The notes beneath the pieces were generated by a model that was given only the letters and a program-made list of their open reading frames with translations, was not told the origin of the DNA and searched no databases. From positions 3,195-67,194 of the forward strand of contig JAADHH010000095.1 in the NCBI GenBank assembly GCA_013151955.1: 64,000 nt of DNA, written 5' to 3'. Origin of the DNA: Chloroflexota bacterium (GTDB lineage Bacteria; Chloroflexota; Anaerolineae; Ardenticatenales; JAADHH01). Shown in pieces: positions 22,766 through 57,560 of the stretch; position 1 is the first letter of the stretch; the number at the start of each line of letters is the position of its first letter. The translations under genes and the position numbers were made by a program.

Positions 22766-22777
22766 AGAATACGACCA

Positions 22778-41831: not shown

Positions 41832-43457
41832 ATGCAAGGCTTAATGATGGACTACCCGCTCACCATTCAGACAATCCTGGAGCGGGTAAATCAGTTCTAT
41901 CCGCGGAAGGAGGTTATCTCCAAGCTGCCTACCGGTGTACATCGCTATACCTACGGCGATTTCTACCGGCGCGTGCACCGCCTGGCGAATGTATTGCAAG
42001 ATTTGGGGGTGAAACCGGGGGATCGCGTGGCGACCTTTTCCTGGAATCACTACCGCCACCTCGAACTGTACTACGCGATTCCCTGCATGGGCGCGGTGCT
42101 GCACACGTTGAACATTCGCTTGTTTCCTGAGCAGCTCGCTTATGTGATCAATCACGCCGAGGACAAAGCTATTTTCGTTGACGCCAGCTTGCTCCCCTTG
42201 GTGGAACGGATCAAGGAGCACATCGGCGGCGTAGGTACATTCGTGATCATGAACGACACCGGCCAGCCGCCCCAAACGGCATTGGAACCGCTTGCCGATT
42301 ATGAGGGCCTGATGGCCGGTGCGGCGGAGACGTTCGCCTTTCCGCAACTTGGCGAAAATGATGCGGCGGTGATGTGCTACACCTCCGGCACGACAGGCGA
42401 GCCGAAAGGGGCGGTCTACAGCCATCGCGCGATCTATCTCCATTCCATGGCCGAGTGCATGGCAGATACATTGGCTCTTTCGGAACGGGACACCATCATG
42501 CCGGTGGTACCGATGTTCCACGCCAATGCCTGGGGGGTTCCCTTTGCAGCCCCGATGACCGGCGCTTCCCAGGTATTCCCCGGGCCCTTCATGAAACCGC
42601 CCGATCTGGCCGGCTTGATTCAGGATGAGAAAGTCACTTTCACCGCCGGTGTGCCGACCCTCTGGTTTGGTCTCTACCACTTGTTGATGCAGGAAGATTA
42701 CGACATGAGCAGCCTGCGGGCGATGGTCGTTGGCGGAGCGGCAATGCCCCAGAGCCTGATCGAGGATTTCGAGAAGAATTTGGGTATCCGGGTCATCCAT
42801 GCCTGGGGCATGACGGAGACGACCCCGTTGGGCACGGTGGCCAACCTGAAGAGCAATATGGATTCGTGGTCCGAGGCCGATCGCTACAGTGTGCGGGCCA
42901 AACAGGGCACACCTGTGCCAGGCGTGGAAATCCGCGCCATGGATGAAGCCGGTAACATCGTGCCTTGGGATGGCCAGACGATGGGCGAGTTGCAAGTGCG
43001 CGGCCCCTGGGTCATTCGGAGCTATTACAACGATCCGCGCAGCCCACAATCTTTTACCGACGACGGCTGGTTGCACACCGGAGATGTGGTAACGATTGAC
43101 CCCGAAGGGTATATGCAGATCACCGACCGGACAAAAGATCTGGTGAAGAGTGGCGGCGAATGGATTTCTTCGCAGGCGCTGGAGAATGCGCTGATGGCGC
43201 ACGACAAGGTGCTCGAAGCGGCCGTGATCGCCATTCCGCACCCCGAGTGGCAAGAACGCCCGTTGGCCTGTGTGGTGATCGCACCGGAGCACAAAGACCA
43301 GGTGACGAAAGAAGAATTGTTGGCCTTCATTCGGCCCAAGTTTGCCAAGTGGTGGCTGCCGGACGATGTCGTCTTTGTGGAGGAGTTGCCCAAAACCAGT
43401 GTCGGAAAGTTCGACAAGAAGGTGTTGCGCGAGCGATACAAGGAGTACGGGTTATAG
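41832..43457 (+). CDS. AMP-dependent acyl-CoA synthetase (medium/long-chain fatty acid-CoA ligase)
   Basis: 541 aa. AMP-binding 'YTSGTTGEPKGA', 'GWLHTGDV', and 'PKTSVGKFDKK'. Confidence 0.93.
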   Translation: MQGLMMDYPLTIQTILERVNQFYPRKEVISKLPTGVHRYTYGDFYRRVHRLANVLQDLGVKPGDRVATFSWNHYRHLELYYAIPCMGAVLHTLNIRLFPEQLAYVINHAEDKAIFVDASLLPLVERIKEHIGGVGTFVIMNDTGQPPQTALEPLADYEGLMAGAAETFAFPQLGENDAAVMCYTSGTTGEPKGAVYSHRAIYLHSMAECMADTLALSERDTIMPVVPMFHANAWGVPFAAPMTGASQVFPGPFMKPPDLAGLIQDEKVTFTAGVPTLWFGLYHLLMQEDYDMSSLRAMVVGGAAMPQSLIEDFEKNLGIRVIHAWGMTETTPLGTVANLKSNMDSWSEADRYSVRAKQGTPVPGVEIRAMDEAGNIVPWDGQTMGELQVRGPWVIRSYYNDPRSPQSFTDDGWLHTGDVVTIDPEGYMQITDRTKDLVKSGGEWISSQALENALMAHDKVLEAAVIAIPHPEWQERPLACVVIAPEHKDQVTKEELLAFIRPKFAKWWLPDDVVFVEELPKTSVGKFDKKVLRERYKEYGL

Positions 43458-44159
43458 GGGACGAGCCAGAGTCAGGCCGTAGACGGCTTGCGCTCCCTGT
43501 TCACGAAGGGTGTGCGCGCAGGCCGACAAGGTCGCTCCGGTAGTCAGGACGTCATCAATCAGGAGGGGGCGATGGCCGGCGACGTGAGCAGGCGAGGCTT
43601 CGAACGCCCCCTGCACATTCAGCCACCGTTCACGTGCCGAGAGGCCAACTTGGGGAGGCGTTTGGCGCGTGCGCCGCAGGGCCTGTTCCACCACGGGCAA
43701 GCCTGTGCGCTGCGCCAGACGCTCTGCTAAGAGGGTGGATTGGTTGTATCCCCGTTCTTGTTCGCGGGTTTGGTGCAGCGGCACCGGCACGATCATGTCT
43801 GCGGAAAAGGTCTGGGCTTCCCAAACATCCAGGAGAAGGTCGCCCAGCGGGTTGGCCAAATCGCGCAGATTGTTGTATTTGAGAACGTGAATGGCTCTGC
43901 GGAGAGGGCCGTCGAACGGTGCGACCGCGCGTAGCCGGTCGAATTCCGGGGGGTGCGCGCGACAGAATCCACACGTGCTTTTCCGGGACGGGAGTGCCCT
44001 GCTGCACGTGGGGCATACGGGGCCGGCAAAAGGGGTGATGTGGTCAAGACAAGATGGGCAGAGGAGCGCACCGGTTTTCCGGCAATGCACACAGCGTGGC
44101 GGGAAGAGGAGGTCGAGCAGGGTTTTCTGGGTTTTGATCCAATGATGCCGCAGATTCAT
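43452..44159 (-). CDS. comF: ComF-family phosphoribosyltransferase-like protein (competence protein ComFC type)
   Basis: 356-aa ORF trimmed to ATG 44159 (235 aa): N-terminal zinc fingers 'CVHCRKTGALLCPSC...CPTCSRAL...CGFC' and PRTase motif 'LLIDDVLTTGATL'. Its start overlaps the DUF192 stop by 4 nt. Confidence 0.88.
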   Translation of the reverse strand: MNLRHHWIKTQKTLLDLLFPPRCVHCRKTGALLCPSCLDHITPFAGPVCPTCSRALPSRKSTCGFCRAHPPEFDRLRAVAPFDGPLRRAIHVLKYNNLRDLANPLGDLLLDVWEAQTFSADMIVPVPLHQTREQERGYNQSTLLAERLAQRTGLPVVEQALRRTRQTPPQVGLSARERWLNVQGAFEASPAHVAGHRPLLIDDVLTTGATLSACAHTLREQGAQAVYGLTLARPL

Positions 44160-44503
44160 GAATCGAAGATCGCCAGTTTGTCCCCGACGACGATGCCTTG
44201 CCGGGCAATGGTGCCGGCCGGCAGCTCTAAGACTGCGTGCGTCCCCCGAACCCAGGGGCCGGGACGTTGCGGTGGCATGGCCTCGGTCAGGCGGATGACT
44301 GTATTGTTCTCGTCGAGATACAAAACATCGATGGGAAAGCGCATCAGAAATGTGTGGATGGAGCTTTCGGGGCACAGCAGGAGGCCTTCCCCTTTGGCAA
44401 GCGCCTTCCTTCCCAGCAGCCCGCGCAAACGGGCAAGAAAACTTGTCGCCATCATACCACGTGTCACGATTTCGGTGTTTCGGGTGAGATTTGTAACTCT
44501 CAT
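44156..44503 (-). CDS. DUF192 (COG1430) domain protein
   Basis: 115 aa. 'ARLRGLLGRKALAKGEGLLLCPESSIHTFLMRFPIDVLYLDENN' fits the DUF192 pattern. 4-nt overlaps with tadC upstream and comF downstream. Confidence 0.8.
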   Translation of the reverse strand: MRVTNLTRNTEIVTRGMMATSFLARLRGLLGRKALAKGEGLLLCPESSIHTFLMRFPIDVLYLDENNTVIRLTEAMPPQRPGPWVRGTHAVLELPAGTIARQGIVVGDKLAIFDS

Positions 44504-45429
44504 ATCCCCTTGAAGGTTTCAATCAAACGAGGTATGGCCGGCCCGAGTAGAACGATGAAGAGCGAAGGGAAGATCAGGAAGGCCAGTGGGATGAGCATTT
44601 TGATCGGCGCTTTTTGGGCCGCTTCTTCGGCGCGCTGCCGTCGTTTGATGCGCATCTGCTTCGACTGAATGCGCAACACCTTGGCAATGCTCACGCCCAA
44701 TTGGTCGGCCTGGATGATGGCGGCTGCAAAGCTGGTAACGTCGTCCACATCCATGCGGTAGGCCATCTCCCGGAGCGCTTCCCGGCGCGATTTCCCAATC
44801 CGAAGTTCGCTGATGACCCGTCCAAAGGCTTGAGATAGTTCGTTGTCCCACTTTTCGTTTACCTTGGCCAGGGCAGCATCAAAGCCAAGTCCCGCTTCGA
44901 CGCTGATCGTGAGCAGGTCCAGGGCATCGGGCAACGCTTTTATAATTTCATGCTGTCGTTGGCGGATTTTCTGGCCTAACCACATCGTAGGCAGGAAAAA
45001 GCCGAGGGCTACGAGGGCGATTACAAAGAAAAGTATCCTGGAGGGCTCTGTGCGGGCGAGGAAAAAGAGCACGCCCGGGACAGCTCCTGTAACCAGCGCC
45101 GAGAGGCCGCGCACACCCATGAACTCAGCCGGCGTCCAGTCGTTGGGGTTGCCGGCCATATCGAGCTTGTGTTGCAGAGTTTCGAGGTTTCTTTGGGGAG
45201 CAAAGCGCATAACAAAACCGGACATGGTCTGGATGATTGGCTTGATGGCCCGATCCTGGAAAGGTACTTGCAATTCGATTTCTTCCAACGTGCGGGGTTG
45301 CCGGCCCCCATAGCGGTTGAGTCTTTCTTGCACAGGGTTCTCGCGGCGGGTGAGGGCCAGGCCCACGAAGATCAAGGCAATGCTTGATCCGGCGAGCAAG
45401 GCAACGATCAAGGCCAGCAGTCCACTCAT
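44500..45429 (-). CDS. tadC: Tad pilus inner-membrane platform protein TadC (T2SS-F family)
   Basis: ORF trimmed to ATG 45429 (MSGLLALIVALLAGSSIALIFVG...). T2SSF domain 'ALPDALDLLTISVEAGLGFDAAL'. Confidence 0.9.
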   Translation of the reverse strand: MSGLLALIVALLAGSSIALIFVGLALTRRENPVQERLNRYGGRQPRTLEEIELQVPFQDRAIKPIIQTMSGFVMRFAPQRNLETLQHKLDMAGNPNDWTPAEFMGVRGLSALVTGAVPGVLFFLARTEPSRILFFVIALVALGFFLPTMWLGQKIRQRQHEIIKALPDALDLLTISVEAGLGFDAALAKVNEKWDNELSQAFGRVISELRIGKSRREALREMAYRMDVDDVTSFAAAIIQADQLGVSIAKVLRIQSKQMRIKRRQRAEEAAQKAPIKMLIPLAFLIFPSLFIVLLGPAIPRLIETFKGI

Positions 45430-45431
45430 AA

Positions 45432-46394
45432 TTACACCTCGATATTCACAATTTTTCGGATGATGAAGAAACCGATGGTGATCATCACGATAGCAACCGT
45501 CAGCATCGTCCACCCGCAGGTAGTGGTGTAGAGCAAAGACATATACTCTTTGTCAATGACAAACAGGACGGCGGCCAGGATGACGGGCAAGAGGGTGATG
45601 ATATATCCGGATAGCATCTGCTGAGAGGTCAACACACGGATTTCGCCCTGAATGCGCACCCGTTCTCGTATCGTTTCGCCGATAATGTCCAGGATTTCGG
45701 CAAGATTGCCGCCCACTTCGCTTTGGACGAGGACGGCCGTGATCATCATGTCCAGGTCTTCGCTGTTGATGCGACGCAGCATATTGTTGAGGGCTTCTTC
45801 GTTTGTCAGCCCCAGCCCGACCTCCCGCACCACACGTTCAAATTCTATGGAGATGGGGGGAGATAACTCGCGGGAGATCACTTCAATAGATTGCATGAGG
45901 CTGTAGCCGGCCCGCAGGCTGTTGGCCAGCAGGGTGATTGCATCGCCCAGTTGATCATTGAAGGCGTTCAGGCGGCGTTGCTGTCGCCAGCGCACGTACA
46001 GACGCGGCAAGAAATATCCGCCAATGCTGAAGATCAAGGCCAGGACGAGCACGCGAAACAGGACCAACCCCAAAAGGAAAGTCAGGAGCACAGTGGCGAT
46101 GTTAATCAAGATATATTCGGAGGTCGTGATTTTGAGGTCGGCGCGAGCCAGTTCGACGGCCAGTGCCGGCCCGGCAACGCGACGTTCCAACATGCGGTTG
46201 AGCATCTGGGCAAAGCGACCTGGACGTTTGCTGTCACCTTCTTGAGTGGGTTGCACCACTCCTTCCCGCGTGGCATAGCGGTCCAGACGAGAACCGATCA
46301 CTTCGGCCCGACTGCCCATGAATTGGGCCAAGCCGCCGAAGAACATCAGTACGGCGATCCCCATAGCAATTGAAAGGATGATTGGCGAAATCAC
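45432..46394 (-). CDS. tadB: Tad pilus inner-membrane platform protein TadB (T2SS-F family)
   Basis: 320 aa. 'QLGDAITLLANSLRAGYSLMQSIE' T2SSF motif and 3-4 TM helices. Confidence 0.9.
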   Translation of the reverse strand: MISPIILSIAMGIAVLMFFGGLAQFMGSRAEVIGSRLDRYATREGVVQPTQEGDSKRPGRFAQMLNRMLERRVAGPALAVELARADLKITTSEYILINIATVLLTFLLGLVLFRVLVLALIFSIGGYFLPRLYVRWRQQRRLNAFNDQLGDAITLLANSLRAGYSLMQSIEVISRELSPPISIEFERVVREVGLGLTNEEALNNMLRRINSEDLDMMITAVLVQSEVGGNLAEILDIIGETIRERVRIQGEIRVLTSQQMLSGYIITLLPVILAAVLFVIDKEYMSLLYTTTCGWTMLTVAIVMITIGFFIIRKIVNIEV

Positions 46395-46478: not shown

Positions 46479-47873
46479 CTACGAATAATACTGGTCGTCC
46501 ATCCCAAACATGTTCGGGGGCAGCATAATTCCCGTGGCTTCTATGCGATCTACGAATTTAGGACGAATGCCGGTCGGGCGTAGCCGGCCCACAATACGCC
46601 CATCTTCAATGCCCGTTTGTTGGAAGACGAATATGTCCTGCATGACGATCACATCGCCTTCCATGCCTTGGACTTCGGCGATGTTCACCACTTTTCTGGT
46701 GCCATCGCGGAAGCGGTCTTGGTGAACGATCAGGTCGATGGCCGATGAGATTTGCTCGCGGATGGCCCGCAGCGGCAGGGCCATTCCGGCCATCAGAGTC
46801 ATCGTTTCGAGACGAGCCAGTGTGTCGCGCGGCCCATTCGAGTGTGCCGTAGTCATGCTGCCGTCGTGGCCCGTGTTCATCGCTTGCAACATATCCAGGG
46901 CTTCGGCTGCGCGCACCTCGCCAACGATGATGCGATCAGGGCGCATACGCAGCGCATTGACGACGAGCTGCCGGATGGACACCTCGCCACGTCCCTCGAT
47001 GTTGGGAGGGCGTGATTCCAATGTGACGACATGCTCTTGTCTGAGTTTGAGTTCTGCAGCGTTTTCAATCGTGACGATTCGCTCGTCGTTGGGAATGCTC
47101 GACGATAAGATGTTGAGCAGGGTCGTCTTTCCCGAACCGGTGCCGCCAGAAACTACGACATTCAACCGGGACTTTACGCAGGCATCCAAAAACTCCAACG
47201 CCTCGGAAGTTATGGAGCCAAACCGCAACAGGTCTTCCCCACCCAGACGTTCACGGCCAAACTTTCGGATGGTGATGGTGGGGCCTATGAGTGCCAGAGG
47301 GGGGATGATGATGTTGACACGTGATCCATCTGGCAGGCGAGCATCCACATAAGGCTGGCTCTCATCCACCCGGCGTCCAATGGGGGAGACAATGCGGTCG
47401 ATGATGCGCATCACATGTTCATCATCGTCGAACAGGTTCGTGACCTTTTCCAGTTTTCCGGCCCGCTCTATGTAGATGCTTTTTGGCCCGTTGACCATGA
47501 TTTCGGTGATGCTGTCGTCTTGTAAGAGGGGTTCAATGGGGCCGTAGCCCAGGATTTCCGCCAGAACCTGTTCAAATAAGGCCCGGCGTTGGGATCGCGT
47601 CAGCACCATGCCTTCCTGGGCCAACAGCGTGTCGAACACCTGACGGATCGTTTCCTGCATTTCTTCCCGATGGCTGAGGTCAATCTGCGTATCCAATTCG
47701 GCGATGAGTTGTGTTTGGATCCGCCTTTTGAGAGATGTGAGAGGGTCTTTGGCCTTGGCCAACGGTTGACGACGGAAGCGCAACGCTTCCATTTTGGAAG
47801 TGCCCTGCTCCTTGTCACCGATATCAGGGAGCCGGCCGGTTTGTTTCTTTTCAAGTCGCTTGAGTAAAGACAT
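46479..47873 (-). CDS. cpaF: Tad pilus secretion ATPase CpaF/TadA
   Basis: 464 aa. Walker A 'SGGTGSGKTTLLN', 'RPDRIIVGEVR', and 'TGHDGSMTTAHSN' (His box). Confidence 0.95.
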   Translation of the reverse strand: MSLLKRLEKKQTGRLPDIGDKEQGTSKMEALRFRRQPLAKAKDPLTSLKRRIQTQLIAELDTQIDLSHREEMQETIRQVFDTLLAQEGMVLTRSQRRALFEQVLAEILGYGPIEPLLQDDSITEIMVNGPKSIYIERAGKLEKVTNLFDDDEHVMRIIDRIVSPIGRRVDESQPYVDARLPDGSRVNIIIPPLALIGPTITIRKFGRERLGGEDLLRFGSITSEALEFLDACVKSRLNVVVSGGTGSGKTTLLNILSSSIPNDERIVTIENAAELKLRQEHVVTLESRPPNIEGRGEVSIRQLVVNALRMRPDRIIVGEVRAAEALDMLQAMNTGHDGSMTTAHSNGPRDTLARLETMTLMAGMALPLRAIREQISSAIDLIVHQDRFRDGTRKVVNIAEVQGMEGDVIVMQDIFVFQQTGIEDGRIVGRLRPTGIRPKFVDRIEATGIMLPPNMFGMDDQYYS

Positions 47874-47890
47874 ATTCTAGCACCAAGTTT

Positions 47891-48085
47891 CTACGCATTG
47901 TCCGAGACTTCGCTCAGAAAATGTGGCCCCTGACGGGGCAGTTGACAAAAGGACAGGGGACACAGATTTACACAGGCTTCGACACAGGCTTCGCACACAG
48001 ATTTTTCTGAATGTTTTATCTCTGTTTTTCTGTGTCCTACAGAAACATCGACAACTTTTTGTCGACCTTGACGCCCTAAGCGCCT
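47891..48085 (-). repeat. Family C repeat, copy C3 (subtype b)
   Basis: The reverse complement is about 90% identical by eye to 63391-63582. It fills the cpaE-cpaF intercistronic gap and abuts the cpaE stop codon. Confidence 0.88.
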
Positions 48086-49376
48086 ACCGCTTCCGCCACC
48101 GTCTAAATAGTCCTCCGGGAGTTGCTGCCTGCTTTTTGTGCATTGTTTCCGTCGGACCCGGCGGGGGCAGTTGTTCGACGATTTGCTGGGCCAGGTGTAA
48201 CAGGTTCTGCCCAACAGCAGAGTTCGGCTGCCCCTGTACGACAGGCAGACCCTGGTTGACGGCTTTGGTCGTTGCCGCATCATCACGTATCACGTCGGTA
48301 AGGACAGGATGTTTCACACTGGCTTCTATGTCGCGTACGCGAATCCCTCCTCGGGGGTCGTGCTTGTTGAGCACGAGCAAAATCTTTTCCGGCTCATAGG
48401 TCAAAGCCTCGGTAACCTCGAAGAAGGTCTTGGTATTTTTTATGGCCGTTATTTCGGTCGTCGTCAACAGAATGATTCGGTCGCTAAGATCAAATAGAGT
48501 CAATGTTGGTTCTTGGAAAGAAGTCCACGTATCAATTACGATGTAATCAAAGATCAGTCGCAGCTTCTCCAGGATTATGGTCAGGTGCTCCGTCGTGACG
48601 AGTTCGGCCATCTCGGGCTTGGGTGGTGAGAGCAGGGCCTTTACGCCGGAGGAGTGCGTGATCAGCAAACCGGCCAGGAATTCTTCGTCCAGGTCGTCAA
48701 TTTGCTCGACGGCGTCAACTATGCTCCTTTGGGAAGAAAGGTTCAGGAGTACACCCACGTCGCCAAATTGCAGACTGCCATCCACAATCGCTACTTTGGT
48801 CTTCGTCACTTCTCGAATGGCGATTGCCAGATTGGTGACCACCGTGCTGGTTCCGACCCCCCCCTTTGCGCCATAAACGGTAATCACTCTCCCTTTCGGC
48901 GATGGCGGGACGGGCTGGGCGACCGGTACCGGAGCCAACGCCTCTCCTTGGGGAGGCGGGGGGGTGGCCGGGCGACGGCGCTGGCCCAAGTCGTAAACGC
49001 GCCGTATGCTGGTGACCAATTCTTCTGCGGTGAAGGGTTTGATCAGGAATTCGCGTGCGCCGGCCAACATGGAACGTCGCAGGTAGTCGGCCTCTCCCTG
49101 TACCGACATCATGATCACCTGGGTGTTGGGAGCGCTTTCCGATATTTTCTCGCCGGCCGTCACCCCGTCCATGCCCGGCATGTTGATGTCCATCAAGACG
49201 ACATCTGGCTGCAACTCCATGACCATCTCGACACCTTCCGCACCGTCCGATGCCGAGCCAACAACCTGAATGTCCTTTTCGAAGTATAGGAGCTTCTTTA
49301 GGTTCTCACGAGTTTCCGGTATATCATCCACAACCAGGACGTGGATCATTTTGTTAGGGTCTGCGTTTTCAGACAT
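48084..49376 (-). CDS. cpaE: Response-regulator receiver domain fused to CpaE/TadZ-type MinD/ParA ATPase
   Basis: 430 aa. REC 'IHVLVVDDIPETR...DVVLMDINMPGMDG...MMSVQG...FLIKPF' has all phospho-acceptor residues. Then 'VITVYGAKGGVGTSTVVTNLA', a deviant Walker A. Confidence 0.9.
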   Translation of the reverse strand: MSENADPNKMIHVLVVDDIPETRENLKKLLYFEKDIQVVGSASDGAEGVEMVMELQPDVVLMDINMPGMDGVTAGEKISESAPNTQVIMMSVQGEADYLRRSMLAGAREFLIKPFTAEELVTSIRRVYDLGQRRRPATPPPPQGEALAPVPVAQPVPPSPKGRVITVYGAKGGVGTSTVVTNLAIAIREVTKTKVAIVDGSLQFGDVGVLLNLSSQRSIVDAVEQIDDLDEEFLAGLLITHSSGVKALLSPPKPEMAELVTTEHLTIILEKLRLIFDYIVIDTWTSFQEPTLTLFDLSDRIILLTTTEITAIKNTKTFFEVTEALTYEPEKILLVLNKHDPRGGIRVRDIEASVKHPVLTDVIRDDAATTKAVNQGLPVVQGQPNSAVGQNLLHLAQQIVEQLPPPGPTETMHKKQAATPGGLFRRWRKR

Positions 49377-49411: not shown

Positions 49412-50191
49412 TTATCGAGGGCGAACATCAAATTCGCGAATTATGTAGTCTTCGTTCACGGTCTCTGTCTTGACCTCTTCGTGATCTCCGGCAGCACGTA
49501 GCGCCAGATCCACAAGGGTGTTCTCCCGTAGACTTTTCAGGATGATTGCCTGTTGGCGGTCGACCAAAAAAGTGATCACTTGTTGTTGCTGGTTCTGCTG
49601 CTGATTGCTCGGAATGTTCCACGATCCCACGCGCAGGACCTCGATATCTTGCAAGGCGAGTTGTGTGGCCGGTTTTTGGGTGACGCCTTGGGCCGTGTCT
49701 TCTTGCAGCCTCATGCTCACCAGAACATCGACTCTATCGCCCGCCTGGATCGCTCCGGCGACACCACTAATGTTGTCCACGGGCATAGCCACGGCTACTT
49801 TGCCTTTCGGAATGATGAACGATGCGTCCGAGCCCAGCCCCAGTCTCGTTTCTTCCACCTTTTTGTCGATCAACATTGAGCTCAGCAGGATCTGGCCGGG
49901 GAAGATCGGGCTTCTCGTCAGCTTGCCCACCGCGTCCGCCGGATTCAATATCGCGCCAGGCGGAACGGAGTCCTGCGGCCACTCCTTGACTCCGATTGCG
50001 TCGGGGGGTACCGGGACATGGGCTTCGATATTCTGGAACGCGACCACCACAGATGCCGTCTCTACGGGCTGGACGTTAGTCCCTTGCGGCTGGCGGCGCA
50101 ATATGAACAGGGTGGCTCCTGCAGACACAATGGCAAGGATGAACCCTAGTACAATCAGGAGTCTTGCGCTACGTTGCATCTTTTCCTCCAA
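49412..50191 (-). CDS. cpaB: Flp pilus assembly protein CpaB/RcpC (SAF domain)
   Basis: 259 aa. N-terminal TM helix 'ARLLIVLGFILAIVSAGATLFIL'. Position upstream of cpaE. Confidence 0.8.
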   Translation of the reverse strand: MEEKMQRSARLLIVLGFILAIVSAGATLFILRRQPQGTNVQPVETASVVVAFQNIEAHVPVPPDAIGVKEWPQDSVPPGAILNPADAVGKLTRSPIFPGQILLSSMLIDKKVEETRLGLGSDASFIIPKGKVAVAMPVDNISGVAGAIQAGDRVDVLVSMRLQEDTAQGVTQKPATQLALQDIEVLRVGSWNIPSNQQQNQQQQVITFLVDRQQAIILKSLRENTLVDLALRAAGDHEEVKTETVNEDYIIREFDVRPR

Positions 50192-50335: not shown

Positions 50336-52027
50336 TCAATCAGCCCGCACGGTGGGCAAAAAGAGAACCTGATTGGAATCTCTGGGTGCATAATAGAGTT
50401 CGATGCCGTGCAACACCGGTGTAGTAGAAGAGAGTGCCGTAGAAAAATTCAAACGATAGTTCACCTGGCCGGTCGTTTGGATGGGCACTACGTAGGTGAT
50501 TCGCGACGTTTGTGTCAGTGCGTTGGTTGCCTGGCCAGCGGCGACCAGCGGATGCGACGAAATGTCTGTGTCGACCCACGGTTGGCTGGAGTCTGCCTGA
50601 TAGGCAAAGGTAATTGTGGCAGCCGTCGTATCGGTTATGGCCGTTTCCAGAGCGAACCGCTGCAGGTAGCTGTTCTCCGGTAGTTGCATCGTGCCGGTGT
50701 AGATCCCGTGTGGCATGTATTGCGCGGCCAGGCCACGTGTGGGGGCACTGTACACGCTTGCCTGAGGGAAAGCGTGGGTGTTCGCCCCACCGACCACGAA
50801 GATGTGGTCCGCCAGCCAGGTCCCTGTGTGCGCGTAGCGCGGGGCCGGCAAGGGATAGGTCGTTCGCCAGACGGGGTCACCGGCCTGCTCACGATATAGG
50901 TAATCGGGTGCGGAAGGATCCAGCGCGACGCTGATCACTTCGTCCCGGTGGCCGCTGGTCAAGGTGGGGCCTACCCCGCCGGCCAAAAGAATTTGAGCGT
51001 TGACTTGAACTGTTGCTGCCTCCAAAAAGGATTCTGGGAGTGGCAAGGAAGCCGTATGCCAATTGGAAAGCGACCCATCCGGCTGGATATCGGCGTAGAA
51101 CATGCTGGCATTGCCCTGCCCAGACGAGACGTCGTCTCCGCCCATGACGAAAAGTGTAGCATTGCCATCAGCGTGACGATAGAGCACGGACATAGCGTGT
51201 GCCAGCACTTTTGGGAGCGCCGGCGCGGTCTGGAATGCCGTGATGTGTCCGGCTCCATCTATGTCTGCCCAATGCACTTCATTGTGAGTTTGGGCGCTCC
51301 CTCCGATCACTGTCTGTCCCCCCAGGAAGTACAGGTGTTGCCCGTACAACGCTCCCATGGCGTAATGCGCGGGATATGGCAAGCGTACGGTCTCTGTGAT
51401 CCAGGAACTGATGGTGCCATCTGGCTGCATGGTCGCGCGGAAGATGGTATCCTGCGAGGGGAACTCCAGGCCCGGTCCCTGTCGTGTAAATCCTCCAAGA
51501 ATGTAAAGGTACGTTTCCGTCGAGTCCAGCAAGGCTATGTGGCCGGCCAGGGCAACAGGCATCGCGTTGGCCAACGGTTGCCACGGATTCAATTGAATCG
51601 CGGCCCCATTTTCGGTTGATGATACCACAGAAGTGGCATAGATGGTGTTGGTCGGATTGATTCCGTCTGCGCCTATGCCTCCGGTCACATACAGCCGATT
51701 TCCACGGGCCACGGTTGCCATCTGGCTACGGGGGGCAGGGAGAGATTCTGCGGCCTGCCACGGTTCGGTCACCCCGATAGGTAGCAGTTGCAACGCGCCA
51801 CCGGCGAGATCAATCACTTGGACGTGGCTCGTCTGCCCAGCTTCAAAGTCCGCGACCGTGGTGTGGGGAATCGAGAAAGCGGTCCAGCTTGCTCCCAAGG
51901 GGAGTAGCCCCTGGCGTGCAGTTGCAGATATGAGTATGAGTAGAGCGCCCAAGACAAATAGAGGCCATCGTTTCCCCGCCCGGCGATATCTCATGATCGG
52001 TTGTAACACATTTCTTTCTTGGCGCAT
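50336..52027 (-). CDS. Membrane-anchored Kelch-type beta-propeller protein (6 blades) with C-terminal beta-sandwich region
   Basis: 563 aa (alternative start ATG 51994). TM 'WPLFVLGALLILISA'. Blades marked by RLYVTGGIG, YLYILGGF, HLYFLGGQ, TLFVMGGDD, ILLAGGVG and IFVVGGAN. Confidence 0.75.
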   Translation of the reverse strand: MRQERNVLQPIMRYRRAGKRWPLFVLGALLILISATARQGLLPLGASWTAFSIPHTTVADFEAGQTSHVQVIDLAGGALQLLPIGVTEPWQAAESLPAPRSQMATVARGNRLYVTGGIGADGINPTNTIYATSVVSSTENGAAIQLNPWQPLANAMPVALAGHIALLDSTETYLYILGGFTRQGPGLEFPSQDTIFRATMQPDGTISSWITETVRLPYPAHYAMGALYGQHLYFLGGQTVIGGSAQTHNEVHWADIDGAGHITAFQTAPALPKVLAHAMSVLYRHADGNATLFVMGGDDVSSGQGNASMFYADIQPDGSLSNWHTASLPLPESFLEAATVQVNAQILLAGGVGPTLTSGHRDEVISVALDPSAPDYLYREQAGDPVWRTTYPLPAPRYAHTGTWLADHIFVVGGANTHAFPQASVYSAPTRGLAAQYMPHGIYTGTMQLPENSYLQRFALETAITDTTAATITFAYQADSSQPWVDTDISSHPLVAAGQATNALTQTSRITYVVPIQTTGQVNYRLNFSTALSSTTPVLHGIELYYAPRDSNQVLFLPTVRAD

Positions 52028-52086: not shown

Positions 52087-53337
52087 CTATCGTGTCATTT
52101 TAATGATCATCACGCCTTTGTCGTTGGCGCCGCCCAGCTCCCCTTGTGGAGCTACGTACCGTACGAAATGTCCCCGAATGTATTTGTTGTCCCCGTGATC
52201 TTGAATCTCGTCCACCTGGAAGGCGGCAAAGGAGACGATGTTATAGTAATACTTGTTATCATAAGTGCCGTTATTTGTGTAGGTGTCTATGATAGTCGCA
52301 TAAGCGGGGTCGCTCCACCCGTATTGACCATAGGCCGGGTTGTTATGGCATTGTCCTGGGTTGGGGCCAGGGTCATACGAGCCACCGACATCGCGGTGGT
52401 TGCTGGGATCATCGTTGCACTTCTGGTCTGTCGTGTAATGATAGGCAATGTCGTAGACCGGCATGATCAGCACCTGGCCGACGTGTGCTTCCCGTAGGAT
52501 GTGCTGGGTATCCCGGGGTGGATAGCGGTGTTCTTGCTCCCAGCCATACTTTCCTGCGGGGTCTCCTTGTATGCGCGTGCGCTCGAATATCGTGGAGTCG
52601 TGGTATCCTTCACGGGTCCACTGCTTGAGTAGTGCGTCGCCGATGTTGCACTTGTTCGGGTACGCGCAACTGAGGTCCAGCAAGGCGGCGTTTGCGCCGG
52701 TGATGTCGCCACTATCCAACGTGCAGCCGCTCCCCCCTCCGTGGTGATTGCTCTGGTAGGCGTCGTCATGGTATCCACCGTCGTCATCATGGTGGTCATC
52801 TCCATGCTGGTTACAATCCTGTCCCCAAATTTTGTACGAGGCTCCGTATGTGAAATCGAAATTCGAGATGGCGATGGGAGACAATCCGCTTACGGCCTTC
52901 GCCGTGCCGAATTGTGCCGTCGCTTCGGCCATGACAGTGAACGTGGGGCGGCCCACGATGCCCGAAACATAGCCATTGAATTGGTGTCCCGCCTGCACAC
53001 GCACTCCATTCGTCCAAGACGGTGTCGGTTGATTCAGACATTGAACGGGTACGTCACGTGGCGTATAGAACATGGAAACTTTGTCGCTATCGGCCCCCTG
53101 GCGCGTGACCGCATATTCCCGAATCGTGGAACACAGGGCCAATTCATTCGTTTGCCCGGTGGCCAGGGCTACCGCTCCGGCTATGGCCGCACTGTCGGCC
53201 GCATTTTGCATACTGCGTCGCTGTAAATAGTTGTTGCTACCATCAACGGACAAGGCCAGGAAGCCCAGCAAAGCAGCTAAGACCAGGGCTATTATGACCA
53301 TCGACTGTCCTTCTTCTCTTCGCATGATCTGTATCAT
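52087..53337 (-). CDS. TadG-like (Tad_N, pilus-assembly) protein with His/Asp-rich insert
   Basis: 416 aa. N-terminus 'REEGQSMVIIALVLAALLGFLALSVDGSNNYLQRRSMQNAADSAAIAGA' is the TadG/Tad_N pattern. 'HGDDHHDDDGGYHDDAYQSNHHGGG' at residues 177-200. Confidence 0.75.
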   Translation of the reverse strand: MIQIMRREEGQSMVIIALVLAALLGFLALSVDGSNNYLQRRSMQNAADSAAIAGAVALATGQTNELALCSTIREYAVTRQGADSDKVSMFYTPRDVPVQCLNQPTPSWTNGVRVQAGHQFNGYVSGIVGRPTFTVMAEATAQFGTAKAVSGLSPIAISNFDFTYGASYKIWGQDCNQHGDDHHDDDGGYHDDAYQSNHHGGGSGCTLDSGDITGANAALLDLSCAYPNKCNIGDALLKQWTREGYHDSTIFERTRIQGDPAGKYGWEQEHRYPPRDTQHILREAHVGQVLIMPVYDIAYHYTTDQKCNDDPSNHRDVGGSYDPGPNPGQCHNNPAYGQYGWSDPAYATIIDTYTNNGTYDNKYYYNIVSFAAFQVDEIQDHGDNKYIRGHFVRYVAPQGELGGANDKGVMIIKMTR

Positions 53338-53495: not shown

Positions 53496-53954
53496 TCAAT
53501 TGCTGCGCACCGGTTGGACGGCTGTTGCCTGCAACTGGATATTCTGTCGTCCCGTAAAGCTGCGGAAAAAGGGTGTAATCCAATCGTACTCGTAAGACAG
53601 GGTCACGGTAATGGTGTCCCCAATGCCCGGTGATACCGGATCGCTTAGGTCTACAGCTACGTTGGTAATCTTGCTGGTATCGACGAGACCTTGTTGACTT
53701 TCATGTCTGGTGCGATAGTCCACGTTGTCCGGATCGGCACAGGACGCCCCACTCGAGGCGTAGGGGCAGCCGGGGTAGAAGGAGCCGTAGGAGGCTCCTT
53801 CGCCCGCCGCATTGCCCAGTGCAACATAAGTGAAATAGGCACGCCCCAAGTCTGCGATACCCATGATCAATAGAATGAGTACCGTCATCCCCAGGGCCAA
53901 CTCAACGATGCCCTGGCCTCTCTCCTCGCCAATCCTCATTCGGTTCCACCCCAT
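53496..53954 (-). CDS. TadE-like pseudopilin
   Basis: 152 aa. 'GEERGQGIVELALGMTVLILLIMGIADLGRAYFTYVALGNAAGEGASYG' is the TadE N-terminal domain. Confidence 0.85.
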   Translation of the reverse strand: MGWNRMRIGEERGQGIVELALGMTVLILLIMGIADLGRAYFTYVALGNAAGEGASYGSFYPGCPYASSGASCADPDNVDYRTRHESQQGLVDTSKITNVAVDLSDPVSPGIGDTITVTLSYEYDWITPFFRSFTGRQNIQLQATAVQPVRSN

Positions 53955-54035: not shown

Positions 54036-57000
54036 CTACGGGCAGGGTCTGGTCCCAGTGATCTGCGGGGCCAGGTCCACAACGTGGGTCTGGTCGTCAG
54101 AACCCGTGAATGAGACTTGAGCCGTACCCGCCGAACTGGGTGGCGGATTGCTCACAGTCGCCGAAAGCGTGATCGTCACCGAATCGTCAACCTTCATGTT
54201 GCCCAGGTTCCAGGTCATCGTCTGGCCATTGACGCTGGCCGGCGACGGATTGGCCGAGCCGTTCACATATTGCAAGTCAGCCGGCAACACCTCGGTAACT
54301 ACCACATTCTTCCAAATGATCTGTGTGATCTGTGTGCCAATATCCTGGAAAATTCCGGCTAGATCGCTGGAGTTCGGCGCTTCATAGTAATGCGCACTAT
54401 CCGAAGCCATACTTCGCAGTACATTGCGGGCCAGGTTCTCCGTAGCGCTGCCGTGTTGCTGCCCGACATCGCCCAGGTTGAGACCAATCGTGAATACCGT
54501 GGTCCCCTGGTTCTTGGCGGAAGCCGCTTGGTTGATGGCGTCATTCGTGCAGTTGGTGGGCGAAGAGGGCCAAGTGCTGCAACCCTGGGAGCTGCCATGC
54601 CGGCGGTTGGCCACACCATCGCTCAGCACGACGATGATCGGTATGGCATTGCTTCGCGCCCGGCTGCTGTTTAGCTCTTGTTGAGCCTTGTAGACGGCAT
54701 CGCCGATGTTGGTGTAACCATTGGCGTTGAAGTTGTCGATGGCGTTTTTCACGCTATTGAAATTGTTCGTCAGACTGTGGTCCTTGCTGGCTGTCGTAGA
54801 GTAGGAAACGAGCCCTACTTTGTCCGTGCTGGAATCGAGCTGATCGATCAGCAGTTTGGCCGCACTCTTGGCATCGCTGATGGGCTGCGGTGGGTTGCCA
54901 CCCGCGTCGTCCATGGAACCGGAGCGATCGAGCACGATCATGACATCCAGCTTGGTATGTTGCGTGAACGGTGTCCCCGTAGGTTGGACCCCTATGGCAA
55001 TGTCGGCAATCTCGCACTGCCCAGAGGTCGTCGGCGTAGCCGTTACCGTTGGTGTGGGCGTGGCTGTGGACGTGGGCGTGCTGGTAGCCCCTCCCTGCGG
55101 CGTACTGGTCGCCGCCGGCGGCGCGCACGGCCCCGGTTGCACGTTGACTGTGTTCTGACCAACGCGGCTGGGCGATGCGTGGATGTAGGGGATCGTCACA
55201 TGGTCGAACCCGGCTTGCCCAAAGGCGGCCTTGTCCACGTCCACGGTGTAAATCACTTCGTAGAGCCAGTTCGGATAACTCGGGTTGGGCGTGTAGTTGG
55301 CATCTGTCGCCGGCGAATCGGTGGTCATGTTGGAGTATCCGGCGCTATTCAGATTGTAGTCCAGCGATGTAGAAGCGCTCAGCACCCAGGCTGCATTCCC
55401 CACATTCACGCTGCCGTCACCGCCCGTCACCCCTTGGGAGGCATAGCCGGAAGGCGCGCTGCCATCCACATCCAGATAGTCTACGGAAATATCCATCACC
55501 TCACTGCCGTTGCCATCGTAGAGCAGGAACTGCGCCCGGTCGCTCTTCCAGAGGTCCTGGAACGTGTGTTGTTTGAGCCGGCCATTCTTCCAGTACTCAG
55601 ATGTGTTGGCTCCGTAGGTGTTGTCCACGAATTCCTTATCCAATACCAGGCGGATGCGGATGTACCCGCCCATGTCTGTGGCGTACAGTTGGGTGTAGAA
55701 GTATTCGGGTCCCTGGCCCGGGTAGGCCGGGTTTGGCGACACATAGCAGACTTCCTGGCTGCCGCCGGGGGTCGGCGTGGCGGTGGGCGAACCGGAAGGG
55801 GTGGTCGTACTCGTCGGCGTCGATTCAGGCCCCTGACTGCCGCCGCTGCCACTGGTGGTGATGCTGCAACCATTTTCAAAGTAGAAGGTCACCACAAAGT
55901 CGCCCATGTTGAAATAGGAAGCCAGGTCGGATGGACTATGGTCGAAGTCCGCCTCCCAGGTTTTGCCGTGGTTCTTCTTGATTTCCTTATCACCGGAGAA
56001 GTGCGAGACGTCGGTGGGGGACGAATGCCCATCGCCACCCCAGATGCGGTGGCCGCCCAACTTGAACCAGTCGATCTTCATGTGCGGGTAATGATCGCTC
56101 TCCGGCCAGTAGAAGACAATGCGGTCGAGTTCTGCATCCTCGTCCGTGCCATTCGTGATTGTGGTTTGCACGTGGTCCTTGTTGCTGGGCACGGTGACCA
56201 GTTGGCTGGCCGTCAGACCGCTGCACTGCGACGAGGTCGTCGGTACCGGCGTGGGGCTAGGCTGTGCCGTAGACTCTGGCGTGGGGCTAGGCCCAAACTG
56301 GCTGCTGCCCGATGCGGAAACGGCGCACCCACCCTCGAAATAAATGGTCACCTGGTAGCTGGAGAGGTTGAAGACGTCGGTCAAGTGTTCGGGGCCGTCC
56401 TTGATCTTGGCTTTCCAGGTCTTGTGGTGGCCGTGCTCAATCTCACGGTGATCATCATGTCCAGACAGGGTGACATCGGTGGGCGGCGAGGCGTCATCTC
56501 CCTCCCATATTTCGTGGTCATCCAGCTTGAACTTGTCCACCTTCATGTTGGGGTAATCGCCGCTGGTCGGCCAGACAAAGTAGATCCGGGTAATCTTGGC
56601 GTTATCGTGACTGGCATTGTTCGTAAGGGTAACCCGCAGTTCGTCATTATCGTGCAAGGTTATGTCGCTGGCGGCGATGCTCTGGCACTGCGCGGGAGTG
56701 GTCGGTGTCGGGCTGCTGGCAATTGTTGTGGCGGTGGGAGACGAGCGGCCGCAATCCGAGACCTGGATGGTAACAGAATCTTGCTCACCGGTCGCCGGTA
56801 CGACAGCGTACACACGGTAGCGTCCGGTGCCCTGGTTGCCTCCGTTCATGTCGTCGGGGACAACGGTAACATTGCGATGGGCATTGAAGTCATCCAGGTG
56901 CCAGTTCCGAAACTGTTCCGGCCCCGGTTGTTGTTCGTAATAGAAAGTATACGACGTGCCCACCGGAGAGACTTGCACATAGTTGCTCAGATTGAACGTG

Positions 57001-57560
57001 TCCCAAATACACACGCTCAGGTTTTCCGTCGCGAAGGAAACATCTCCCCCCGGATTGGGTGTCGTGGTGGGCGTGAAGGTCGGTGTGGGCAAGGGCGCAA
57101 AGGTAGGAGGACTATCCTGCCATGGAGCCGATTCGCCTCCCGATCCAACAATGGTGCGTGCAGAGACAAAGCTGACCGTCATCGATGGTAGGATACGGTT
57201 GATAAACGGGGTCATCGGATGGTAAGAATAGCTGGGAGTTACCACGATGCGGTAGTCTCCCGGTATCGTTTGCGAAAGGTCTACGTTGTGACCAAAAACG
57301 CCGTCATCATAGGCGATGGCAACGTGTACATCATCGGCGCGAATGGTTACAATTTTGGAGCGTACTGCCTGAATGATCCCCAAGGTATCGCCCGGATTGG
57401 CCGCACCGTAGCGGGAACCTTCCCTTGCCGCATTCGACAGATTGCTCCAAAGCAACATAGCATGGCCCATGTCCACAATGCCTGAAATGATGATGAGCAA
57501 TATCGGCAGTACAAGCGCAAATTCTAGTAAGCTCTGCCCTTTTTGGGTTCTTCTCTTCAT
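54036..57560 (-). CDS. Giant TadE-N-terminal / vWA-domain protein (1174 aa) with internal tandem modules; putative pilus-associated adhesin
   Basis: SD GGAGGG upstream. N-terminus 'MKRRTQKGQSLLEFALVLPILLIIISGIVDMGHAMLLWSNLSNAAREGSRYG' (TadE). vWA MIDAS 'VLDRSGSMDD...YTNIG...VVLSDGVANRR' (residues ~869-1080). Thr/Pro linkers. Two homologous ~127-aa modules at residues 291-417 and 445-570. Confidence 0.85.
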   Translation of the reverse strand: MKRRTQKGQSLLEFALVLPILLIIISGIVDMGHAMLLWSNLSNAAREGSRYGAANPGDTLGIIQAVRSKIVTIRADDVHVAIAYDDGVFGHNVDLSQTIPGDYRIVVTPSYSYHPMTPFINRILPSMTVSFVSARTIVGSGGESAPWQDSPPTFAPLPTPTFTPTTTPNPGGDVSFATENLSVCIWDTFNLSNYVQVSPVGTSYTFYYEQQPGPEQFRNWHLDDFNAHRNVTVVPDDMNGGNQGTGRYRVYAVVPATGEQDSVTIQVSDCGRSSPTATTIASSPTPTTPAQCQSIAASDITLHDNDELRVTLTNNASHDNAKITRIYFVWPTSGDYPNMKVDKFKLDDHEIWEGDDASPPTDVTLSGHDDHREIEHGHHKTWKAKIKDGPEHLTDVFNLSSYQVTIYFEGGCAVSASGSSQFGPSPTPESTAQPSPTPVPTTSSQCSGLTASQLVTVPSNKDHVQTTITNGTDEDAELDRIVFYWPESDHYPHMKIDWFKLGGHRIWGGDGHSSPTDVSHFSGDKEIKKNHGKTWEADFDHSPSDLASYFNMGDFVVTFYFENGCSITTSGSGGSQGPESTPTSTTTPSGSPTATPTPGGSQEVCYVSPNPAYPGQGPEYFYTQLYATDMGGYIRIRLVLDKEFVDNTYGANTSEYWKNGRLKQHTFQDLWKSDRAQFLLYDGNGSEVMDISVDYLDVDGSAPSGYASQGVTGGDGSVNVGNAAWVLSASTSLDYNLNSAGYSNMTTDSPATDANYTPNPSYPNWLYEVIYTVDVDKAAFGQAGFDHVTIPYIHASPSRVGQNTVNVQPGPCAPPAATSTPQGGATSTPTSTATPTPTVTATPTTSGQCEIADIAIGVQPTGTPFTQHTKLDVMIVLDRSGSMDDAGGNPPQPISDAKSAAKLLIDQLDSSTDKVGLVSYSTTASKDHSLTNNFNSVKNAIDNFNANGYTNIGDAVYKAQQELNSSRARSNAIPIIVVLSDGVANRRHGSSQGCSTWPSSPTNCTNDAINQAASAKNQGTTVFTIGLNLGDVGQQHGSATENLARNVLRSMASDSAHYYEAPNSSDLAGIFQDIGTQITQIIWKNVVVTEVLPADLQYVNGSANPSPASVNGQTMTWNLGNMKVDDSVTITLSATVSNPPPSSAGTAQVSFTGSDDQTHVVDLAPQITGTRPCP

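Follow-up and report, generated by a model that had tools for sequence, protein, structure and literature searches.

DUF192 and comF genes at the 3′ end of a tad pilus operon in Chloroflexota

We find that a 115-aa DUF192 protein without a signal peptide is widespread as a terminal gene in tad operons, and that in the 64-kb stretch of DNA analysed here (the window, from an Ardenticatenales-like Chloroflexota genome) it is followed by a comF gene that looks like a member of an ordinary comF-hpf pair rather than a dedicated component of the Tad machine. On the complete account, the two genes are the 3′ end of the tad operon, DUF192 is a Tad accessory protein, and comF is an ordinary gene whose comF-hpf block came to lie behind tad in an ancestor; we assign this a probability of about 0.7.

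Results

The tad operon

The operon lies on the minus strand, in the order pseudopilins, Kelch protein, rcpC, REC-tadZ, tadA, tadB, tadC, DUF192 and comF. Its first gene (54036..57560) encodes a giant TadE-VWA-DUF11 protein of 1174 aa (Pfam TadE E 2e-12, VWA E 1e-21, and DUF11). This is followed by a TadE-like pseudopilin (53496..53954; Pfam TadE E 5.6e-11), a TadG-like pseudopilin (52087..53337; Pfam Tad (TadE/G-like) E 1.7e-10) and a Kelch-repeat beta-propeller protein (50336..52027; Pfam Kelch families), homologues of which occupy the same place in the operons of loci L001, L006, L047, L053 and L056. Then come rcpC/cpaB (49412..50191; Pfam RcpC E 1e-19 and SAF; NCBIfam pilus_cpaB 141.5 bits, above the cut-off of 71), tadZ/cpaE with an N-terminal receiver domain (48084..49376; Pfam Response_reg E 6e-30, AAA_31, CbiA and ParA) and the pilus ATPase gene tadA/cpaF (46479..47873; Pfam T2SSE E 9e-62; NCBIfam TadA-family ATPase 335 bits). 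The platform proteins are of the T2SSF family, i.e. TadB (45432..46394; Pfam T2SSF E 1.3e-19) and the inner-membrane protein TadC (44500..45429; Pfam T2SSF E 4e-18; homologues of 305-312 aa). A single locus therefore carries TadA/CpaF, TadB and TadC, TadZ/CpaE, RcpC/CpaB and pseudopilins, which is the core of a Tad/Flp type IVc system. There is no secretin domain (RcpA/CpaC) in the cluster, consistent with a monoderm-type system. No prepilin peptidase (TadV/CpaA) is present among the window ORFs scanned with Pfam; it may be encoded elsewhere in the genome.

Motif scanning and translation revealed one candidate Flp pilin in the window and no other, a 51-aa protein (…GQGLVEYALIL…) encoded on the minus strand at 9947..10102, 34 kb from the tad cluster. 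It has the G/LVEYAL motif and matches Pfam Flp_Fap with E 3e-6, at 27.3 bits against a gathering score of 32.2. Two large membrane-protein genes adjoin it, one of DUF2079 and the other with a weak PMT match that falls below the Pfam cut-off.

The 210-bp spacer between tadZ and tadA (47874..48083, minus strand) is a repeated element with the palindrome TCGACAA-N4-TTGTCGA. An 86% identical inverted copy lies at 63392-63588, and there are partial copies at 31518-31708 and 61560-61593. No Rfam match was found for it, nor anywhere in the window. It could possibly serve as an internal operator or promoter for tadA-tadB-tadC-DUF192-comF.

[quoted passage not shown]

DUF192 and comF each overlap the preceding gene by 4 nt, as an earlier note on this DNA had stated. 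On the minus strand the tadC stop codon (TGA, 44502-44500) overlaps the DUF192 start codon (ATG, 44503-44501), giving an ATGA at 44500-44503 (…AAGGGGAT ATG A GAGTT…). The DUF192 stop codon (TGA, 44158-44156) overlaps the comF start codon (ATG, 44159-44157) in the same way at 44156-44159 (…GATTC ATG A ATCTG…). A 4-nt ATGA is the commonest overlap between genes of an operon, and is unremarkable in itself; as read from the sequence, the two overlaps are good evidence for co-transcription of tadC, DUF192 and comF. The spacing of tadC and DUF192 in relatives ranges from -14 to +40 nt, and that of DUF192 and comF is -4 nt in six of them (L001, L004, L064, L073, L163 and L164). The further claim of the note, that DUF192 and comF are the last genes of the tad operon at its 3′ end, is supported.

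Public database proteins identical to those of the window have exactly 115 aa (named DUF192) and 235 aa (named ComF family protein by NCBI), which supports the start codons assigned to the two genes. The tadC start is likely to be ATG 45429, which follows a GAGGTG Shine-Dalgarno sequence and lies 2 nt past the tadB stop (GAGGTGTAATTATG). Its frame is open as far as GTG 45513, which is the less likely start. An ORF of 356 aa (43452-44522) was rejected as a gene, being merely the comF frame left open upstream across DUF192; homologues align from residue 1 of ComF. There is no Shine-Dalgarno sequence before the comF ATG, so that comF is probably translated by re-initiation. A scan of the minus strand between 43000 and 46500 gave no sigma-70-like promoter.

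The operon is bounded by a convergent gene for an AMP-dependent ligase (41832..43457, plus strand; Pfam AMP-binding E 3e-84), the 3′ end of which overlaps the comF stop by 6 nt. A consensus scan places a weak terminator-like hairpin at 43400..43416 (minus strand), 36 nt past the comF stop and within the 3′ end of the ligase gene.

The DUF192 protein

The DUF192 gene (44156..44503, minus strand) matches Pfam PF02643 with E 9.2e-21 and a score of 74.2 bits against a gathering score of 27, covering profile positions 5-96 of 96. Proteins of this family are often annotated 'membrane protein'. The protein encoded in the window starts MRVTNLTRNTEIVTRG…, directly at the conserved core, and by inspection has no hydrophobic stretch, signal peptide or membrane segment. 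Most of the tad-linked homologues begin at the same position.

An AF2 model of the protein (pLDDT 89.7) was compared with known structures using Foldseek, and matched only 3m7a and 3pjy (TM 0.83 and 0.79, E 1e-8, 24-26% identity). A profile comparison also gives a match (E 6e-11), and the modelled fold is that of Saro_0823 (3m7a) and R01717 (3pjy). The chains of 3m7a and 3pjy are longer (140 and 136 aa), whereas the tad-linked proteins have about 115 aa and no N-terminal hydrophobic segment; R01717 is, by its annotation, a hypothetical signal peptide protein. Within the tad-linked set H50 does not vary, but in the alignment it is not conserved in 3m7a and 3pjy. Any mechanism for DUF192 is a guess, because the fold matches nothing beyond other DUF192 structures. 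Caulobacter CpaM was considered as a possible DUF192 protein and rejected, since it is annotated as a polysaccharide deacetylase.

DUF192 at the end of tad operons

Gene neighbourhoods were surveyed in three ways, seeded with DUF192, comF and tadC. Because the loci were taken in order of their similarity to the proteins of the window, the proportions describe this subfamily and clade and not all DUF192 genes or tad operons; on this basis 51 of the 74 evaluable DUF192-seeded loci have a tad gene (tadC or tadA) that ends less than 500 bp upstream of DUF192 and on its strand. The gap between the two genes in these loci has a median of 40 nt, and in eight they overlap. Extending the distance to 10 kb brings the number of loci with tad genes to 62 of 74. 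The other 12, including L004 with its DUF192-comF-hpf trio, had no detected tad gene over that distance.

DUF192 is directly adjacent to tad in Chloroflexota, Bacillota, Desulfuromonadota-type (Geobacter-type) lineages and Omnitrophota, and in Actinomycetota tad genes are found on the opposite strand no more than about 5 kb away. Where tadA is the last tad gene DUF192 follows tadA (L020, L032, L035, L044, L063, L075 and L080); it tracks the end of the operon, whichever tad gene is last. Some tad operons of the same clade lack DUF192 (L081, L082, L086, L097, L100, L115, L118 and L162), which is therefore not essential for every such Tad machine. Outside Chloroflexota, and in Chloroflexaceae, the next gene usually encodes a GT-C membrane glycosyltransferase. 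The earlier note had cast DUF192 as a partner of ComF. This was not borne out as a specific relationship, since DUF192 is linked to tad in several phyla where there is no link to comF.

A literature search for DUF192, UPF0127, COG1430 and PF02643 yielded no functional study, only an observation on Bulleidia extructa, in which a 112-aa DUF192 protein is encoded by the penultimate gene of the tad operon (PMC12786226). It therefore lies near the 3′ end as in the window, but the next gene encodes a coiled-coil protein and not ComF. The same paper notes, for a small number of genomes of Erysipelotrichales and Helcococcus, that DUF192 consistently adjoins Tad genes, and that it has the 3pjy/3m7a fold (PMC12786226). 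This is the one passing mention of the association in the literature, made with neither a survey of other phyla nor a proposed function.

The ComF protein and its neighbours

[quoted passage not shown] The earlier description of ComF as a zinc finger joined to a PRTase fold holds: there is a double zinc ribbon (Pfam DZR_2 E 1.2e-10, residues 14-67) and a phosphoribosyltransferase-type domain (Pribosyltran E 5.6e-7). Among 31 homologues there is no variation at C23, C26, C34, C37, C49, C52 and C63, and almost none at C66. The PRPP loop (LLIDDVLTTGATL) is similarly conserved as DDVxTTGAT, with D202, D203, T206 and T207 invariant in the 31 homologues. The best NCBIfam matches both fall below their cut-offs, i.e. 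PRK11595 GntX (137.4 against 304 bits) and TIGR00201 comF (114.8 against 233.55 bits). In sequence searches of solved structures the only matches were to PRPP synthetases and PRT enzymes, and these were confined to the region of the PRPP loop. ComFC is needed for transformation, binds single-stranded DNA and associates with the membrane via ComEC (PMC9005727).

The adjacency of tadC and comF, whose absence in relatives the earlier note had named beforehand as grounds for refutation, is conserved. comF follows tadC in all eight tadC-seeded contigs (TadC 62-78% identical), with DUF192 between them in seven, and in many more Chloroflexota loci. It is next to DUF192 in 16 of 78 DUF192-seeded loci, all of them in Chloroflexota, and next to tad in 8 of 53 comF-seeded loci; comF-seeded metagenome loci with tadC upstream comprise seven in which it is directly adjacent, without DUF192, and one with DUF192 as well. 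Across the three seeded surveys the adjacency of comF and tad is confined to Chloroflexota. We found no report of a tad-comF operon in the literature.

The gene that follows comF is frequently hpf, encoding a ribosome hibernation factor, as seen in 13 of 24 linked loci, in six of the eight tadC-seeded contigs and in 14 of 65 comF-seeded loci. In relatives it is often trailed in turn by a gene for a low-molecular-weight phosphatase. The window and L001 have no hpf after comF, and the convergent AMP-ligase gene occupies its place. In Streptococcus pneumoniae comFA-comFC-hpf is one block of the competence regulon (PMC6560143). This Firmicutes arrangement, a ComFC-type protein with zinc finger and PRT domain followed by long-form hpf, recurs in most of the Chloroflexota relatives, but there the comFA helicase gene is missing upstream and comF is preceded by tadC/DUF192. 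Since hpf follows comF in most relatives, comF appears to belong to an ordinary comF-hpf pair that abuts the tad operon. Moreover the conserved block includes genes with no role in a pilus, so that the adjacency of comF need not mean a shared function.

Discussion

The conservation of DUF192 as a terminal gene in the tad operons of several phyla makes it most likely that the protein is a Tad accessory factor, as yet uncharacterised. It would be a small, beta-rich and probably cytoplasmic protein that might act from the cytoplasmic side, on the platform of TadB and TadC or on the ATPase TadA, and the ATGA overlap would permit its translation to be coupled to that of tadC. comF would be the ordinary ComF(C) gene of the organism. 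We suggest that in the ancestor of a large Chloroflexota clade an old comF-hpf pair became the immediate downstream neighbour of the tad operon, and that the tadC-(DUF192)-comF-hpf block has been kept since. In the lineage of the window hpf would have gone from the locus and the spacers would have collapsed to 4-nt overlaps, leaving ComF co-transcribed with the Tad platform genes. To judge from the gene arrangement, ComF is very likely co-expressed with the Tad machine here.

How much meaning should be attached to the position of comF? It could be none, with comF-hpf lying behind tad through shared ancestry and expressed by read-through. This is a real possibility, at somewhat less than even odds; the link is limited to one phylum, and from Firmicutes to Chloroflexota comF also keeps hpf, an apparently unrelated neighbour. 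Yet the adjacency spans class-level divergence (Anaerolineae-type, Chloroflexia and Thermomicrobiaceae records) while the genes beyond the block differ, it outlasts the loss of DUF192 and of hpf, and the spacers have repeatedly shrunk to overlaps, which suggests selection for co-expression. Alternatively the Tad pilus of this clade might take up DNA as in Micrococcus luteus, with comF placed in the operon so that a cytoplasmic DNA-handling protein is made with the pilus. The precedent invoked in the earlier note is real, as transformation is Tad-dependent in M. luteus (PMC4322843), and so is DNA uptake in Liberibacter crescens (PMC8513845). Further, the order tadC-(DUF192)-comF persists at ComF identities of 40-50%, with outer flanks that change, many lineages have tight or overlapping junctions, comF lies directly behind tadC even where DUF192 is missing, and ComFC works at a membrane step with ComEC (PMC9005727). 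Against this, the same block contains hpf and often the phosphatase gene, so its conservation is not specific to DNA uptake, and the tad-DUF192 operons of Chloroflexaceae, Bacillota, Geobacter-type lineages and Omnitrophota have no link to comF. No comEC, comEA or dprA is present among the Pfam-scanned ORFs of the window, nor does any of the three recur in the 134 ORFs that neighbour 17 comF-linked loci. We know of no described transformation system in Chloroflexota. The locus thus hints at pilus-driven DNA uptake, a reasonable hypothesis that we nevertheless consider rather unlikely. It can be elaborated such that the pilus of a large Anaerolineae-centred clade serves for transformation or DNA scavenging, its operon having captured comF and the starvation gene hpf to switch on pilus, DNA import and hibernation together, with DUF192 a previously unrecognised cytoplasmic Tad component in at least four phyla; all of this together is unlikely.

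Other roles can be considered for DUF192. It might partner ComF instead of Tad, as would suit the L004 trio, in which DUF192 and comF overlap by 4 nt and the 10 kb upstream contain no tad gene, and the recurrence of that overlap in six further loci. But comF is missing from 35 of the 51 tad-adjacent DUF192 loci, and eight loci have tadC-comF with no DUF192, making such a pair very improbable. An assignment to glycosylation of the pilin or envelope, and not to the pilus motor, is also improbable. A GT-C glycosyltransferase gene (TMEM260-like/PMT_2 or GT87) directly follows DUF192 in Chloroflexaceae, Geobacteraceae and some Anaerolineales, GT2 genes recur near the comF-linked loci (8 of 134 neighbour ORFs), and the neighbours of the Flp candidate include the DUF2079 gene and the sub-cut-off PMT match. 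However, many DUF192-tad loci have no adjacent glycosyltransferase gene, and the DUF192 of the window, with neither signal peptide nor membrane segment, has no similarity to glycosyltransferases or sugar-modifying enzymes.

Tad pili are major organelles of adhesion and colonisation, and their gene set is considered to be well defined. By closing tad operons in at least four phyla DUF192 becomes a concrete candidate for a missing Tad component, and one open to testing where relatives are tractable, for example Geobacter-type bacteria or Firmicutes. Chloroflexota are abundant and mostly uncultured, and the tad-comF(-hpf) block provides a specific and falsifiable hypothesis for DNA uptake in this phylum that would extend the two cases of Tad-dependent uptake. 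If the link is only positional it carries a caution, that comF neighbourhoods (like comF-hpf) can be conserved without obvious shared function.

In M. luteus and L. crescens, as proposed for the window, it is a Tad machine that is implicated as the type IV filament for DNA uptake, but the likeness is one of functional analogy only. There the link is genetic and experimental and the com genes are unlinked to tad, whereas in Chloroflexota it is purely positional; comF is unlinked to tad in L. crescens (PMC8513845), and is not mentioned in the M. luteus paper (PMC4322843). Compared with the Tad/Flp operons of monoderms (e.g. Bifidobacterium breve, M. luteus, and Mycobacterium tuberculosis Rv3654c-Rv3660c), the window has the same core set with no secretin in the cluster. 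It adds the Kelch propeller and the 1174-aa TadE-VWA-DUF11 protein, and its only Flp candidate is 34 kb away. Neither DUF192 nor comF is included in the list of Tad components quoted in PMC6668835, and comF appears nowhere in that paper. The operon of the window thus ends in two genes, DUF192 and comF, that lie outside any described Tad gene set.

The 3′ end of the tad operon

The tad operon ends, on the minus strand, with tadC and two further genes, each beginning within the end of its predecessor. The tadC stop codon (TGA, 44502-44500) overlaps the ATG (44503-44501) of an ORF of 115 aa, and the stop codon of this ORF (44158-44156) overlaps the ATG (44159-44157) of an ORF of 235 aa. In Pfam the tadC product matches T2SSF (E 4e-18), the 115-aa ORF DUF192 (PF02643; E 9e-21) and the 235-aa ORF both DZR_2 (E 1e-10) and Pribosyltran (E 6e-7). 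The two 4-nt overlaps and the DUF192 and ComF identities claimed in the earlier note are confirmed. Identical 115-aa and 235-aa proteins from a Chloroflexi MAG are present in the public collection, named DUF192 and ComF family protein, which supports both start codons. Overlaps of 4 nt at ATGA are frequent within operons, and are thus ordinary evidence that the genes belong to one operon, nothing anomalous. The start of tadC is most likely the ATG at 45429, behind GAGGTG and 2 nt past the tadB stop. A G-rich stretch lies immediately 5′ of the DUF192 ATG. No Shine-Dalgarno-like sequence precedes the comF ATG, which would fit translation of comF by re-initiation. From 43000 to 46500 no sigma-70-like promoter was predicted for the minus strand; 3′ of comF there is a predicted weak hairpin resembling a terminator, and the end of comF, with its stop codon, shares 6 nt with a convergent AMP-ligase gene. 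A 356-aa ORF (43452-44522) was rejected as a gene, being the comF frame that stays open upstream.

By Pfam and NCBIfam the cluster extends from 57560 to 43452, and all its genes are on the minus strand. It opens with a 1174-aa protein (54036-57560) that begins as a TadE pseudopilin and also carries internal repeats and VWA and DUF11 domains; it may be a pilus-tip adhesin. There follow TadE-like and TadG-like pseudopilins, a Kelch beta-propeller protein (50336-52027) whose position is kept in several relatives, RcpC/CpaB, TadZ/CpaE with a receiver domain, a 210-bp spacer (47874-48083), and then TadA/CpaF, TadB, TadC, DUF192 and ComF. Pfam and NCBIfam scans of the cluster found no secretin, indicating a Tad system of monoderm type. 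The sole Flp-pilin candidate found (51 aa, MLYLPQEEGQGLVEYALIL..., 9947-10102, minus strand) lies 34 kb from the cluster and scores below the Pfam gathering score for Flp_Fap. Two large genes for membrane proteins lie convergent to it, one at 4921-7488 (DUF2079) and the other at 7485-9836 (matching PMT weakly, under the Pfam cut-off).

We note that the spacer between tadZ and tadA is a repeated element, with an inverted copy at 63392-63588 (86% identical) and partial copies at 31518-31708 and 61560-61593. The copies have a common core with the palindrome TCGACAA-N4-TTGTCGA, and the element has no match in Rfam. It may serve as a common operator or promoter, in which case tadA to comF would form a transcription unit of its own. 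Elsewhere in the window a plus-strand cluster for cell shape and division (17539-25901) contains mreB, mreC, PBP2, minC, minD (assigned by its N-terminal motif only) and rodA, with a 170-aa ORF (19698-20210, not Pfam-scanned) in the position of mreD; the window is therefore ordinary chromosome and not a mobile element.

DUF192 is associated with tad operons across phyla

An alignment of DUF192 homologues was used to retrieve 80 genome loci, in which homologues of the window's Tad proteins and of its ComF were located by tblastn (E 1e-4, coverage at least 40%). In 51 of the 74 loci with enough upstream sequence, the 500 bp before DUF192 contain the end of a same-strand tad gene, and tad genes lie within 10 kb in 62 of the 74; divergent tad genes may escape these thresholds, and as loci were ranked by likeness to the window proteins the frequencies hold for this subfamily and clade. 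The gap in the 51 adjacent loci has a median of 40 nt, with eight overlapping. By the taxon labels of the database records, DUF192 lies directly behind tad in many Chloroflexota orders, in Bacillota (Peptococcaceae, Syntrophomonadaceae), in Geobacter, Geomonas and Desulfuromonadaceae, and in Omnitrophota. The association holds with other geometry in Actinomycetota (loci L038, L040, L062 and L077), where DUF192 is 3-5 kb from tadZ-tadA-tadB-tadC on the opposite strand. Where operons close with tadA rather than tadC, DUF192 comes after tadA; it thus marks the end of the tad operon. The moderate interest of the locus rests chiefly on this link across phyla.

The AF2 model of DUF192 is confident (pLDDT 89.7), and its structure matches are limited to 3m7a and 3pjy, both structural-genomics DUF192 entries. 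By inspection of the alignment the window protein has no N-terminal hydrophobic segment, in contrast to those family members that are annotated as exported or membrane proteins. Its invariant residues are R25, H50, D59, E93 and D108. The one mention that we found in the literature concerns Bulleidia extructa, whose tad operon carries near its 3′ end a DUF192 gene (112 aa) with no assigned function (PMC12786226). Caulobacter CpaM, considered as a DUF192 protein, was rejected as it is annotated as a polysaccharide deacetylase.

The gene following DUF192 differs between lineages. In Chloroflexaceae, Geobacteraceae and some Anaerolineales a large ORF of roughly 410-710 aa recurs after tadC/tadA-DUF192 (L007, L008, L011, L017, L019, L021, L023, L025, L026, L033, L036, L041, L043, L045, L050, L051, L067, L076, L016 and L032). 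The next gene in Chloroflexaceae, Geobacteraceae and further lineages is usually a GT-C membrane glycosyltransferase, judging from seven of the ORFs scanned with Pfam: TMEM260-like/PMT_2 (L011, L033, L050, L076) or GT87 (L016, L032), with TPR matches only in L069; in L046 the gene encodes a protein with VanW/PG_binding_4. Glycosylation of pilin or envelope may thus be tied to such Tad operons.

Linkage of comF to tad, and a possible role in DNA uptake

Three seeded surveys place the linkage of comF to tad in Chloroflexota only. Of the genome loci seeded with DUF192, 78 were evaluable, and in 16 of these comF comes directly after DUF192; all 16 are Chloroflexota (Ardenticatenales, Caldilineae, Anaerolineae, one Thermomicrobiaceae and two Chloroflexia). 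Seeding with ComF gave 80 metagenome loci, 53 of them evaluable; in seven tadC immediately precedes comF across gaps of 77-296 bp, too short to fit DUF192, and one more has tadC-DUF192-comF. With TadC as seed (62-78% identical), comF follows tadC in all 8 long contigs, with DUF192 between them in seven. Adjacency in relatives, which the earlier note had set as a test of its reading, is therefore conserved; it is close to universal within this clade, and persists where DUF192 is lost. An Ardenticatenaceae contig (L004, 9905-11756) has DUF192-comF-hpf with no tad gene detectable in the 10 kb upstream, the sole such locus met.

The earlier note took this coupling to suggest a possible use of the pilus in DNA uptake. 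ComFC works with the uptake channel as a membrane-proximal partner (PMC9005727), and Tad pili drive DNA uptake in two unrelated bacteria, M. luteus (PMC4322843) and L. crescens (PMC8513845). The tad-comF block is moreover kept at about 40-50% ComF identity while genes outside it vary between loci, and its junctions have recurrently contracted until the genes overlap (DUF192/comF at -4 nt in L001, L004, L064, L073, L163 and L164). Yet comF is unlinked to tad in L. crescens, and the M. luteus paper makes no mention of comF. The best two NCBIfam matches of the window ComF, comF and GntX, both fall under their cut-offs. A Pfam scan covering most of the window's larger ORFs found no ComEC, ComEA or DprA, nor are these among the 25 most frequent families (down to two members) in 134 neighbouring ORFs of 17 linked loci, where HPF (9) and GT2 (8) recur.

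The conserved block also holds genes that are not known to act in pili or in DNA uptake. Long-form hpf (Ribosomal_S30AE plus C-terminal domain), encoding a ribosome hibernation factor, follows comF on the same strand in 13 of 24 linked loci, in 6 of 8 TadC-seeded contigs and in 14 of 65 comF-seeded loci, and a low-molecular-weight phosphatase often comes next; loci with hpf behind comF include L004, L006, L010, L015, L031, L047, L053, L081, L082, L086, L100, L115, L118 and L163-L168; hpf has been lost from this position in the window and in L001. It is conceivable, as a suggestion of our own, that pilus, DNA import and ribosome hibernation share a starvation logic. The recurrence of hpf makes the tad-linked comF look like the ordinary comF of an old comF-hpf pair. 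The overlaps, the operon end and the adjacency stand, and the interpretation of the earlier note is supported in part; we consider a function of this pilus in DNA uptake possible, though less likely than not.

We favor, with a probability of about 0.7, a monoderm-type tad operon end in which DUF192 is an uncharacterised but widely conserved Tad accessory gene, and an ordinary comF has probably abutted the operon since the ancestor of a large Chloroflexota clade. In the window comF would now be fused into the tad transcription and translation unit. The comF-hpf pair is common to Firmicutes and most Chloroflexota relatives of this locus; in S. pneumoniae comFA-comFC-hpf form one block, with hpf labelled 'Secondary' (i.e. 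read-through or an additional TSS, by the table footnote; PMC6560143).
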